Counted from the stretch's first letter, positions 17,128-20,532 are shown. The stretch: 64,000 nucleotides of DNA from Anaerolineae bacterium (GCA_027021705.1 JALUTT010000120.1:7702-71701), one strand, 5' to 3'. Program-made: numbers and translations. Notes: a model not told the origin generated them from the sequence alone.

Positions 17128-17559
17128 CTACGGGTCAGTTCCAACGCCGTCGGTATCGTCTGCCTCCTGTTCGCGGTAGGCCACCCGACCCTCCCACAGG
17201 GCCAGGGCCGGAGAGCGCTCCGGGTGACGGACGTCGTAGACGACGATCCCTTTTTCCCGCACCTCGCCGAGCAGGCTCAGGGGGCTGGCCTGGGTGTACT
17301 CTTCGGGGGTCAGCCCGATCGGTTCGACGGCGTGCGTTGCTGCCTCCCAGGCTATCCGCTCCAGCCACTCCAGGCGTGCAACTCGGTCCAGGCCGGCAAA
17401 GGCCGGAGAGAGCACGACAACGTCTATATCGCTCCACCGATGGGGCCGACCGTAAGCGAATGAACCGAATAGGATGACCTGCTCAACCTCCAGTTCGCGG
17501 CTAAGCCGGGCGATGAAGCGCTCGATCTGCTCGGTCACGAAATCCGGTCGCGTACCCAT
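17128..17559 (-). CDS. Minimal nucleotidyltransferase (MNT/MntA-like, pol-beta superfamily)
   Basis: ILFGSFAYGRPHRWSDIDVVVL is a GS-x(n)-DxD NTase motif. Overlaps the upstream HEPN gene. Confidence 0.75.
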   Translation of the reverse strand: MGTRPDFVTEQIERFIARLSRELEVEQVILFGSFAYGRPHRWSDIDVVVLSPAFAGLDRVARLEWLERIAWEAATHAVEPIGLTPEEYTQASPLSLLGEVREKGIVVYDVRHPERSPALALWEGRVAYREQEADDTDGVGTDP

Positions 17560-17924
17560 TCCAGCACCAGGTCCATCTGTCTCAGCAACCGTTGCGCCCG
17601 CGAAGCCGTGTAGACGTCCGGGCTGTCGGCCACCCCCGGGTACCGGGTCGCTCGGTAGTGGGGGTTGAGGCTCAACACGGCGTCAACGATGGAAGCCGGC
17701 GCAGATCGGCCTACGGCCTGGTCCAGCAGTTGGCGCAAGTTGTGCACATATGGCGGTCGCTGACCGGTGGAGTGTACAACCAGGGCCTTCAGCGCTTTCT
17801 CCACGGCCTGCTGGCAGTGGAAGGCCACGTCTCGATAATCGGCGACGGCGAGGGCGCTGTAAGCGCTGTGGCGGTCGGCCTCGGCGTACTCCAGCCAGAC
17901 TCGGGCATCGGTCTCGGCGCTCAT
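17535..17924 (-). CDS. HEPN-domain protein (HepT-like partner of the MNT)
   Basis: All-alpha ~129 aa protein ([40 protein letters not shown]...NLRQLLDQ) typical of HEPN. Its ATG overlaps the gatA stop (ATGA). Confidence 0.7.
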
Positions 17925-19384
17925 AGGGGAGGCCTCCGGGTGTGCCAGTCCGTGGCCTGCTGATAGGCGTAGGCGACCCGCAGGACGACCTCTTCCCCCA
18001 GGGCCGGCCCCATCACCTGCATCCCGATGGGCAACCCCTGCCGGTCGAAGCCGCAGGGGAGGCTCACCCCGCCGATGCCGGCCAGGTTCATCGAGAGGGT
18101 GAAGACGTCGGAGAGGTACATCTGGAGCGGGTCATCCACCTTCTCGCCGATGCGGAAGGCGGTGGTCGGCGTGACCGGGGCCACGATGACGTCCACCTGC
18201 CGGAAGGCCCGGTCGAAGTCCCCCTTGATGAGGGTGCGCACCTTCTGCGCCCGCAGGTAGTAGGCGTCGTAGTAGCCGGCCGAGAGGGCGTAGGTGCCCA
18301 GCATAATCCGCCGCTTGACCTCGGCCCCGAACCCCCGGCCCCGCGTCTGACGGTAGGTCTCCCACATGTCCTCCGCCTCCACCCGCAGACCATAGCGCAC
18401 GCCGTCGTAGCGGGCCAGGTTGGCGCTGGCCTCGGCCGGGGCGATGAGGTAGTAGACGGGAAGGGCGTAGTCGGTGTGGGGCAGGCTGACCTCCCGGACC
18501 TCGGCCCCCAGATCGACCAGCACGTCCAGGGCGGCCCGCACCGCCTCTTCGACTTCGGGCTGCATCCCCTCGATGAAGTACTCCCGGGGCACGCCGATGC
18601 GGAGGCCCTCCAGCCCCTCCGGGCTCCTCCGCAGGGCGTCCACGTAGTCGGGCACCGGCTTGTCCAGGGAGGTGGCGTCGTTGGGATCGTGGCCGGCGAT
18701 GACGCCCAAGAGCAGGGCGGCGTCCAGCACATCCTTGGTCAGCACGCCGATCTGGTCCAGGGAGGAGGCGAAGGCGACGAGGCCGTAGCGGGAGACCCGC
18801 CCGTAGGTGGGCTTGAGGCCGACGACGCCGCAGAGGGCGGCCGGCTGGCGGACGCTCCCGCCGGTGTCCGTCCCCAGCGCCCCCAAGCATTCATCGGCGG
18901 CCACCGCAGCCGCGCTCCCCCCGCTGCTCCCCCCCGGCACCCGGTCCAGGTCCCAGGGGTTGTGGGTGGGGAAGAAGGCGGAGTTCTCGGTGCTGGAGCC
19001 CATGGCGAACTCGTCGGTATTGGTCTTGCCCAGCAGGACGGCGCCGGCCGCCTTTAGCCGAGCCACGGCGGTGGCGTCGTAGGGCGGGACGAAATCCTCC
19101 AGGATGCGGGAGCCGCAGGTGGTGGGTATGCCCTGGGTACAGATGACATCCTTGATGGCCAGAGGGATGCCCAAGAGCGGGGCATCTTCGCCGGCTGCCC
19201 GCCGGGCGTCGGCCTGCCGGGCCTGCCCCAGCGCCGCCTCCGGCGTCAGCGTCAGGTAAGCCTTCACCCGGTTGTCCACCGCCAGGATGCGGTCCAGGAC
19301 CGCCTCGGTCAGTTCGACCGAGGAGACCTCCCCGGCGGCCAGCTTCTCCAGAGCTTCGTGGATGGTCAAGCGATAGAGGTCCAT
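17921..19384 (-). CDS. gatA: Glutamyl/aspartyl-tRNA amidotransferase subunit A
   Basis: Amidase signature [13 protein letters not shown] and an [16 protein letters not shown]-terminus. Start trimmed to MDLY; the track ORF runs to 19417. Confidence 0.9.
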
Positions 19385-19438
19385 CGTTCGGGATCTGCCG
19401 TTGGCGATTCGTGGCATTGGGTTGTCCGTCCTGGGTGC

Positions 19439-20239
19439 TCAGGATGAGGAAGCGATGAGGGATTCGACGACGGCGATAAACTCGGCGGCCTGGGCGATGA
19501 TCTCCTCCACTTCCTCGACGGAGAAGTCCCGACGGCGTTCGTAGTCGGCCTCCAGCCGCCATTTGCGGGCCCGCTGAAACCAGCGGCTGTACTTGCGGTC
19601 CACCAGCCCTGGCCGGATGAAGTGGAAACCGAAGCGGTCCAACGTGCCCGCGTGGGAGCGGGTGCGGATGCCCCGCGCGGCCAGAGCGGCGTCGGCGGCA
19701 TCCAGGAAGGCGTAGAAGACCAAGGAGATCGCGTTGCCCAAGTCACCGGCATCCTTCAGGAGGCGTGCAGAGCGCAGCCGTATGTGGGCCGACTCCAGGA
19801 AATGACGGGCTGTGGCCTCCGGTTGTCCCTCTTCAACCATCACCGGCTCCCCTTTCAGCACGATGCCCTCTTCGGCCACGTTGAGGATCAGGGGAGTGCC
19901 CAGAGCCGTGGCCTTGATCAGTTCCTCGCGATCATAGAGCAGCGGGGTGATCTCCACCCCCCATGTCTCTTCGACCTCGATGGCCAGGTCCGTCACCTGA
20001 CGGCGTATGGCCGGCGTGCGGTGGTCCACCACCAGCAACAGGTCCAGATCCGATCCGGGCCGGCCCTCCCCCCGCGCCCAGGAGCCGAAGAGGATGCAGC
20101 GCTCGACCCGGCCCGGCAGCGTGCTCTCCAGCCGGTTCAGGAAGTCGGTCAACGCCCTTCGTTCTCGCTCTCCCATCGCTGAGGGGAGGGGAAGGGTGTC
20201 GGCTTTCCGGACAGGGGATGGGATGGCCCGGATGCTCAT
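19439..20239 (-). CDS. Fused nucleotidyltransferase plus HEPN-like helical domain protein (KNTase-like architecture) inserted between gatC and gatA
   Basis: N-terminal [24 protein letters not shown] NTase motif. C-terminal helical domain ([57 protein letters not shown]). Its 3' end overlaps the gatC... correction: its start overlaps the gatC stop by 4 nt. Confidence 0.7.
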
Positions 20240-20532
20240 ACGGTGGTCTCCAGAACCGCCTGGACGCGGAAACAGCCCTCTTCGGCGTCGGGTGCGTTGG
20301 CCAGGATCTCCTCACGGGGTGGGGAGGGGCGGGGCTCGTCCGAACGCATCACGCTGCGCAGGGGCAGCACCGTGGCCGTGGGCGGGATGGCCTCGGTGTC
20401 CAACTCCTGCAGGCGGGCCGCGTAATCCAGGATGGCGGAAAGCTGCTCCTGGTAGAGGGCCTTCTCCTCATCGGTCAGCGCCAGACGAGCCAGCTCGGCG
20501 ATATGTTCCACTTCGGCCAGGGTCAGAGGCAT
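20236..20532 (-). CDS. gatC: Glutamyl/aspartyl-tRNA amidotransferase subunit C
   Basis: 98 aa, [47 protein letters not shown], the canonical GatC. Confidence 0.85.

Follow-up and report, generated by a model that had tools for sequence, protein, structure and literature searches.

The 64,000-nt stretch of DNA analysed here (the window; Anaerolineae bacterium, GCA_027021705.1, JALUTT010000120.1:7702-71701) carries on its minus strand, between positions 17128 and 20532, a gene cluster in which two HEPN/nucleotidyltransferase modules are interleaved with gatC and gatA. The order on this strand is gatC, a gene for a fused nucleotidyltransferase (NTase)-HEPN protein termed F, gatA, a stand-alone HEPN gene and a gene for a minimal nucleotidyltransferase (MNT). 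These are the only three HEPN/NTase genes in the window, and the relatives of its GatA are Anaerolineae/Thermoflexales-like Chloroflexota. The gatC gene (20236..20532, 98 aa) encodes subunit C of the tRNA-dependent amidotransferase; it matches PF02686 with an E value of 5e-24 and passes TIGR00135 with 82.7 bits (cutoff 47.1). Its ATG is preceded by the Shine-Dalgarno sequence GGGAGGAAG. The gatA gene, encoding the glutaminase subunit, matches PF01425 (E 2e-167) and passes TIGR00132 with 635.1 bits (cutoff 481.1). It spans either 17921..19417 (498 aa) or, with a start at 19384, 487 aa, and alignment with relatives favours the ATG at 19384. GatA of the window may thus carry an N-terminal extension of 11 residues.

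An earlier note on this DNA had described the five genes as a single overlapping minus-strand operon. The gene order, the ATGA overlaps and the HEPN-MNT overlap were all recovered. The ATG of F overlaps the TGA of gatC as ATGA (20239-20236), and the HEPN ATG overlaps the gatA TGA in the same manner. The MNT start overlaps the HEPN 3' end by 25 nt; use of a GTG start at 17538 instead would give a GTGA overlap. Between F and gatA the window has a spacer of 21 or 54 nt (19385-19438 in the 54-nt version) and no overlap, and the description was corrected in this respect. In eight other loci (L003, L004, L081, L083, L087, L174, L175 and L182) the stop of F and the start of gatA are 0-1 nt apart. The domain matches and the overlaps together support two HEPN/MNT-type modules, one of them fused, that are probably coupled to gatC and gatA, as the earlier note had proposed.

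The sole strong promoter-like site on the minus strand, TTGACG-17-TATAAT, lies upstream of gatC (20574..20602, 11/12 matches in a consensus scan), within the 108 nt that separate gatC from a divergent open reading frame (ORF; 20641..) on the plus strand. It is the probable start of the operon. No terminator-like site was found by scanning the minus strand within 17128-20532. Both the promoter and the terminator calls are consensus matches only, and the start codons are predicted. An Rfam scan of 16000-21500 detected no leader or regulatory RNA beyond a chance-level CRISPR-DR8 match. This match lies within gatA (18785-18819) and, at 23 bits against a gathering score of 39 and with an E value of 0.15, is almost certainly due to chance.

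Protein F (19439..20239, minus strand, 266 aa) consists of an MNT domain (residues ~25-130; PF01909, E 1.3e-8) followed by a class II HEPN domain (residues ~140-266; PF05168, E 4.8e-8), both matches being above the gathering score. The NTase motif GSX10DXD reads G52-S53-x10-D64-L-D66 and is invariant in an alignment of 24 homologues. In the HEPN half, S195-H196 and R228-x3-D232-Y233 are invariant. The RNase motif Rx4-6H (RX4HXY) is absent from the family alignment, with no histidine 4-6 residues past the arginine. The sole cysteine of F, C48, is found in the NTase domain, leaving the HEPN domain devoid of cysteine. The polar residues conserved in unfused UPF0332-type HEPN proteins are all present in F, which also matches the UPF0332 protein AF0298 by sequence. 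The best matches of the halves of F are the chains of a complex between a HEPN protein and a nucleotidyltransferase, PDB 9xbd (E 2e-14 and 4e-14); a search for 9xbd and 9xbc in open-access papers and preprints returned unrelated papers only. The AF2 model of F is confident, with a pLDDT of 89.6, and its HEPN half superposes on AF0298/2hsb with a TMt of 0.86. Among the candidate defence families of PADLOC, PDC-M05A/B and PDC-S09 are matched by F. Of the broader fused family, 98 proteins were recovered at E <= 1e-30 when 1.84 billion representatives were searched with a profile, indicating that this family is not large.

The second module is split into two genes. The HEPN protein (17535..17924, minus strand, 129 aa) belongs to class II and matches PF05168 with an E value of 1.4e-23. 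Residues W10, D17, H61 and R94-Y95-P96 are invariant in the family alignment, in which Rx4-6H is absent and no histidine occurs 4-6 residues past the arginine. The closest solved structures are TT1696/1ufb, 1wol and TM0613/1o3u. The MNT protein (17128..17559, minus strand, 143 aa) matches PF01909 with an E value of 1.7e-10 and keeps the GSX10DXD motif as GS-FAYGRPHRWS-DID. The NCBIfam MntA_antitoxin model gives 28.8 bits for F and 33.7 bits for MNT, both under its cutoff of 60.

By these domain matches and motifs, both modules are assigned to class II HEPN/MNT (PF05168-type), one of them fused. Class II was defined by Yao et al. 2020 (PMC7641770) as PF05168 plus PF01909, after an earlier prediction by Makarova and Koonin, and is described there as lacking RX4H while having a conserved tyrosine and an NTase with GSX10DXD. 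The window modules agree with this description: a PF05168 HEPN stands beside or is fused to a PF01909 NTase with GSX10DXD, RX4H is missing, a conserved tyrosine lies next to a conserved arginine with a histidine elsewhere, and TT1696, TM0613 and AF0298 are the structural relatives. The same type is listed as 'HEPN-T' by Anantharaman et al. 2013 (PMC3710099). The earlier note had named the modules type VII HepT/MntA, a label that has to be withdrawn. The class I HEPN toxins are recognized by PF01934/PF08780 with RX4HXY, whereas the window HEPN proteins are PF05168 rather than DUF86/PF08780, lack that motif, and stand beside NTases that score under the MntA cutoff. The GSX10DXD motif of the MNT, the tyrosine adjoining a conserved arginine and the neighbouring, overlapping genes are nonetheless shared with type VII systems, and the MNT-only remnants and co-varying alleles described below suit the same toxin/antitoxin logic. 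The note had also taken HEPN proteins for RNases of tRNA or mRNA. The motif it proposed to look for by alignment, Rx4-6H, is not there; because these are class II proteins without it, and no biochemistry is reported for class II (PMC7641770), RNase activity is an assumption here.

The nearest fused system is FhepTA, an MNT-HEPN toxin-antitoxin (TA) protein of the Shewanella prophage CP4So (Yao et al. 2026, PMC13000451). FhepTA and F are both fused MNT-HEPN proteins with two-gene unfused relatives. However, FhepTA belongs to class I, has RφxxxH plus a tyrosine and two regulatory cysteines in the HEPN domain, and resides on mobile elements (PMC13000451), whereas F is a class II protein (RxxxDY) with a cysteine-free HEPN domain, and its gene keeps its place between gatC and gatA in a chromosomal operon in 10 loci. 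The domain order of F follows the usual order, in which the MNT gene stands 5' of the HEPN gene, antitoxin first (PMC3710099). The split pair is arranged in the opposite way, with HEPN before MNT in all 7 gat-linked loci; a 35%-identical relative away from gat (L177) is an MNT-then-HEPN dyad and adjoins PIN/MazE genes. The window modules further differ from the usual class II systems in that one of them is a fusion and that neither appears to have its own promoter.

The structure of F also brings up a different function. The proteins might be stand-alone NTase enzymes acting on a small molecule such as an antibiotic or a metabolite, with a HEPN-like substrate-binding domain, and be merely co-expressed with gatCA. 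The best whole-chain matches of the F model in Foldseek are ANT(4'), ANT(9), AadA, LinB and HalB, profile searches match kanamycin and streptomycin nucleotidyltransferases with E values of 4e-4 to 4e-3, and the HEPN fold serves as the substrate-binding domain in aminoglycoside and lincosamide nucleotidyltransferases (PMC3710099). However, these structural matches reach a TM of just 0.41-0.50 at 10-18% identity, and the score for the NCBIfam ANT(9) model is 15.5 bits, its cutoff being 340. Sequence comparison places both halves of F far closer to the two-chain complex 9xbd and to AF0298. Moreover, the second module is split and its alleles co-vary, as would suit a protein-protein pair. We therefore regard a small-molecule enzyme as very doubtful.

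The comparison with relatives used the 80 loci (L001-L080) that have the most similar GatA among species-representative genomes, and protein searches gave further homologues, whose genomic neighbourhoods were added; nearly all are contigs of metagenome-assembled genomes (MAGs) or metagenomes of related organisms. Plain gatC-gatA is found in 70 or more of the 80 species' loci, and an intact F lies between the two genes in only two (L003 and L004). In the 76 of these loci that were used to count the first ORF after gatA, HEPN takes that place twice, and HEPN-MNT follows gatA in L007 and L039. The arrangement is therefore unusual, as had been supposed. The window is the sole locus seen with both modules.

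Both slots hold orthologous genes in many related genomes, so that the arrangement goes beyond chance; the earlier note had asked for such a check of conservation. All 10 F homologue loci examined, at 41-62% identity, have F in the gatC-F-gatA slot. The loci bearing F are, besides the window, L003, L004, L081, L083, L086-88, L089, L174, L175 and L182. In the metagenomic L089 (41% identity to F), F directly precedes gatA and the contig ends before gatC. Six homologues followed up by context look-up (P0005, P0047, P0089 at 43%, P0083, P0085 and P0002) all lie in gatC-F-gatA. The outer flanks of the F loci differ from one another. Likewise, all 7 loci with closer HEPN homologues (38-66%), namely L007, L039, L169, L170, L172, L179 and the window, have a HEPN gene starting 4 nt before the gatA end and followed by an overlapping MNT; the homologues looked up by genomic context, P0110, P0121, P0131 and P0125, are among them. 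A metagenome scan with the F alignment, which gave almost only distant unfused dyads, was used as a non-gat control: gat genes are missing from the neighbourhood of about 78 such dyads, which are in MNT-then-HEPN order and belong to the same broad family. Haloarchaea, cyanobacteria, Salinibacter and Bacteroides carry further unfused relatives on plasmids. The F and HEPN/MNT families are thus specific to the gatCA locus, unlike class II modules elsewhere, which lie on islands and plasmids; here each family keeps to one slot of an essential operon and is passed on with it. A general rule that fusion always implies gat linkage does not hold, as a distant fused homologue (P0187, in L183) is flanked by unrelated genes.

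The linkage is long-lived and fits vertical descent. In a simple neighbour-joining distance tree of GatA, the carriers fall in one Anaerolineae clade, L039 excepted, with a patchy presence within it. The nonsynonymous divergence (dN) of F tracks that of GatA (r = 0.69) and is about 2.4 times higher. HEPN co-diverges with GatA (r = 0.79) and with MNT (r = 0.88). The ratio of nonsynonymous to synonymous divergence (dN/dS) is about 0.1-0.25 in the closest pairs, which indicates purifying selection; synonymous sites are near saturation in most other pairs.

Such a history could mean that the proteins are domesticated regulators of transamidation, with GatCAB, mischarged Glu-tRNA(Gln)/Asp-tRNA(Asn) or a signal of nitrogen status as the target of F and/or HEPN-MNT. 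They might, for example, nucleotidylate a Gat subunit, in the way that GlnE and GlnD act on glutamine synthetase and PII, or cleave or tag tRNA upon stalled transamidation. The strict and long-lived linkage to gatC and gatA, with F ending at the gatA start in 8 loci and HEPN starting on the gatA stop in 7, together with the co-divergence and the purifying selection, speaks for this. So does the resemblance of the fused form to the substrate-modifying NTases ANT(4'), AadA and LinB, and fused MNT-HEPN proteins have been argued to tend toward domesticated protein-modifying enzymes (PMC3710099). The loci without the modules tell against it: at least 70 of the 80 species' loci are plain gatC-gatA, and very close relatives have deleted F. 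Furthermore, F retains every conserved polar residue of the UPF0332-type HEPN proteins, unlike an inactivated binding domain.

The deletions left scars. The 3' end of F is kept over ~150 nt in L001 and ~40 nt in L002, and this retained tail reads AAGGAGGAC-TGA-GTG, with the Shine-Dalgarno sequence and the start of gatA within it. These scars indicate that F was ancestral in that subclade, was dispensable, and had come to carry the translation signals of gatA. In L031, MNT directly follows gatA and HEPN is gone, while no HEPN-only locus was seen among those examined. The earlier note had suggested an addiction-style stabilisation of the gat operon, which finds no support, since F and HEPN/MNT have repeatedly been lost by deletion with gatCA left intact. 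The note had also named, as the outcome that would overturn it, HEPN domains without the RNase motif in proteins that are conserved housekeeping nucleotidyltransferases in all relatives. The motif is indeed missing. A housekeeping NTase present in all relatives is ruled out by the patchy distribution and the deletion scars.

The precision of these scars could be read in another way, with the modules being functionless hitchhikers, decaying insertions that are kept since their deletion risks gatA expression. The scars retain exactly the F tail with the gatA Shine-Dalgarno sequence and start, and the patchy distribution would be expected. However, the ORFs are full-length and their catalytic motifs stay invariant across 40-60% protein divergence. 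The dN/dS of the closest pairs and the co-evolution of HEPN with MNT also contradict decay. The purifying selection makes hitchhiking unlikely, and we consider it the least credible of the readings weighed here.

A further kind of change, and the most telling one, was found within one species. Comparison of the window with the conspecific locus L179 revealed a segment of ~520 bp (17270..17800, minus strand) with only 45-67% nucleotide identity, whereas identity in the flanks is 98-100%, along ~1 kb of gatA and along ~2.5 kb downstream, including the protoglobin and amidohydrolase genes. The segment covers HEPN from residue ~42 to the end and MNT from residue 1 to ~93, or about two-thirds of each protein, on the C-terminal side in HEPN and on the N-terminal side in MNT. 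The divergent allele is present in three independent assemblies (L179-L181). This pattern is that of an allelic cassette replacement, in which the predicted interacting and catalytic parts of the HEPN/MNT pair were exchanged together. Neither the intra-species swap of a cassette of ~50% identity nor the MNT-only remnant in L031 would be expected of a regulator of transamidation.

The protoglobin gene in this flank (PF11563, 16492-17130) comes directly after MNT in the window, with an ATG that abuts the MNT stop (TAGATG). An alternative ATG at 17064 has a far better Shine-Dalgarno sequence, AAGGAGA. The gene may or may not lie in the same transcript as MNT; the gene order is the same in L179.

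The slot between gatC and gatA is also occupied by other genes. In the Chloroflexota MAG locus L051 (3190-6001), a type II restriction-modification (R-M) system, comprising an N6_N4 methylase (3223-4404) and a NotI-like REase_II (4386-5246), lies between gatC and gatA together with a DUF218 gene. The slot therefore takes unrelated selfish cargo, which is a further point against dedicated regulators of transamidation. The tight linkage, the co-divergence and the purifying selection keep that explanation alive, but it loses weight with the recurrent loss of the modules and the exchange of the cassette; on balance we hold it to be rather unlikely.

Other features of the slots were recorded in single relatives. 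In another Chloroflexota MAG (L041:2995-3639), gatC and gatA flank a gene of the cation-efflux family (PF01545, 214 aa). In L182 (1121-2706), two tandem F genes of 262 and 254 aa stand in this place, with identical central regions of ~215 residues and different termini; they represent either a recent duplication or a MAG assembly artefact. The gatA gene of L086 (4782-6233, GCA_030589485.1) is broken by a stop into 367 + 71 aa and is intact in the otherwise matching JGI contig L087, so that the break is probably an assembly error.

What lies directly 3' of gatA varies among the relatives. The commonest first gene is a PF00483 sugar nucleotidyltransferase (18/76 related loci); gatB does not adjoin gatA in the window and takes the first position in just 3/76. 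In L169, HEPN-MNT lies between gatA and a PF00483 gene. In L039 (4425-5807), the MNT ORF continues in frame into PF00483 for a total of 460 aa, which is either a true fusion or the result of a lost stop or sequencing error. Conflict-type genes are often found in this region as well. An NB-ARC/TPR STAND gene overlaps the gatA stop in L086 (6230-8401), L170 (4767-8035) carries TPR, nSTAND6, DUF6922 and AbiEii, and there are CHAT in L174 (3591-5066), NERD in L182 (4230-4913) and a HicB-like gene in L083 (6332-6499).

Taking these data together, we favour, at a probability of roughly 0.55, that the modules are selfish or defence-type class II HEPN/MNT modules that have become long-term residents, trapped in gatCA and expressed from it. 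A TA or defence type is preferred to a housekeeping partner of GatCA because the modules are dispensable, the toxin side is lost with the NTase kept, and co-adapted, deeply divergent alleles are swapped within a species. The mobile unfused relatives and the unrelated selfish cargo in the slot also fit modules of this type. Co-expression of a TA module with a translation-related gene has a precedent in relA-mazEF of E. coli, where the module is co-transcribed downstream of a translation/stress housekeeping gene. The window resembles that case in having a TA-type module directly 3' of a translation-related gene and differs from it in toxin family and mode of neutralisation, as well as in having two modules, one of which lies between subunit genes.

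Based on these comparisons, we propose a course of events and a mode of action for the trapped modules. The modules would have entered the ancestor of one Anaerolineae clade and thereafter been inherited with gatCA. As the consensus scan suggests that they have no promoter of their own, they would be transcribed from the gatC promoter, and the gene overlaps suggest that their translation is coupled to that of the gat genes. By analogy with type VII HepT/MntA and with FhepTA (PMC13000451), each NTase part most likely nucleotidylates the HEPN tyrosine beside the invariant arginine. The target would be Y95 of the RYP motif in the pair and Y233 of RxxxDY in F, the latter being modified in cis or across a dimer. 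By the same analogy, nucleotidylation would keep the HEPN effector inactive. The effector itself may be an RNase using alternative residues or may act by RNA/nucleotide binding, both being possible, and the invariant histidine (H61 in HEPN, H196 in F) is kept. Trapping would follow from the position of the modules: gatC and gatA are kept adjacent and co-translated, the F tail supplies the gatA ribosome-binding site, and the HEPN start lies inside the gatA stop. With these features, removal would be limited to precise deletions, and alleles would be swapped by recombination through the conserved gat flanks. The modules themselves would be dispensable, subject to deletion, to decay to MNT alone and to exchange as allelic cassettes. 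Positional conservation is most simply explained by such trapping, and the modules appear to exploit the operon rather than the reverse.

Several points weigh against trapped TA or defence modules. Yao et al. 2020 (PMC7641770) describe class II as having no biochemistry and no validated TA status, and neither toxicity nor AMPylation nor RNase activity of class II HEPN/MNT was found to be reported in the open-access literature (PMC7641770). The RNase catalytic motif of canonical HEPN proteins is absent from both HEPN parts, and the HEPN-then-MNT order of the pair is the reverse of antitoxin-first (PMC3710099). All close homologues occupy one slot and co-diverge with GatA under purifying selection, whereas TA modules typically move from site to site; the fixed slot and the co-divergence are equally what a host function linked to GatCA predicts. 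The 10/10 and 7/7 counts are not independent events, because the loci are phylogenetically related MAG contigs. The GatA tree that places the carriers in one clade is a simple distance tree, and the near-saturated synonymous sites confine the selection estimate to the closest pairs.

A more far-reaching possibility, which we judge to be quite unlikely, is that the gat-locked lineages form a surveillance or regulatory layer on indirect tRNA aminoacylation, in which strict translational coupling would let module stoichiometry report the output of the operon. Upon failure of transamidation or of glutamine supply, GatCAB or tRNA(Gln)/tRNA(Asn), mischarged or not, might then be nucleotidylated by the NTase, or bound or cleaved by the HEPN.

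In open-access papers and preprints, nothing was found that links HEPN with gatA or gatC, no relevant paper links gatCAB with toxin-antitoxin systems, and a search for HEPN with UPF0332 likewise gave nothing. The HEPN/MNT class itself was already known; new here is that both families are tied to the gatC/gatA slots. Among the TA-like modules predicted in thermophiles and archaea, those of class II HEPN/MNT rank with the most abundant, and this locus offers two compact and clearly bounded lineages of them, one fused and one split. It also provides natural experiments, namely precise deletions, an MNT-only remnant and two deeply divergent, co-adapted alleles in one species. Conflict-type modules can last long by lodging between genes that selection keeps adjacent, and here one module even carries the ribosome-binding site of the downstream gene. 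If a link to GatCAB or tRNA is true, HEPN/MNT biology would be tied to translational fidelity, and if the modules do serve in surveillance of indirect aminoacylation, class II HEPN/MNT would thereby gain a first physiological role.

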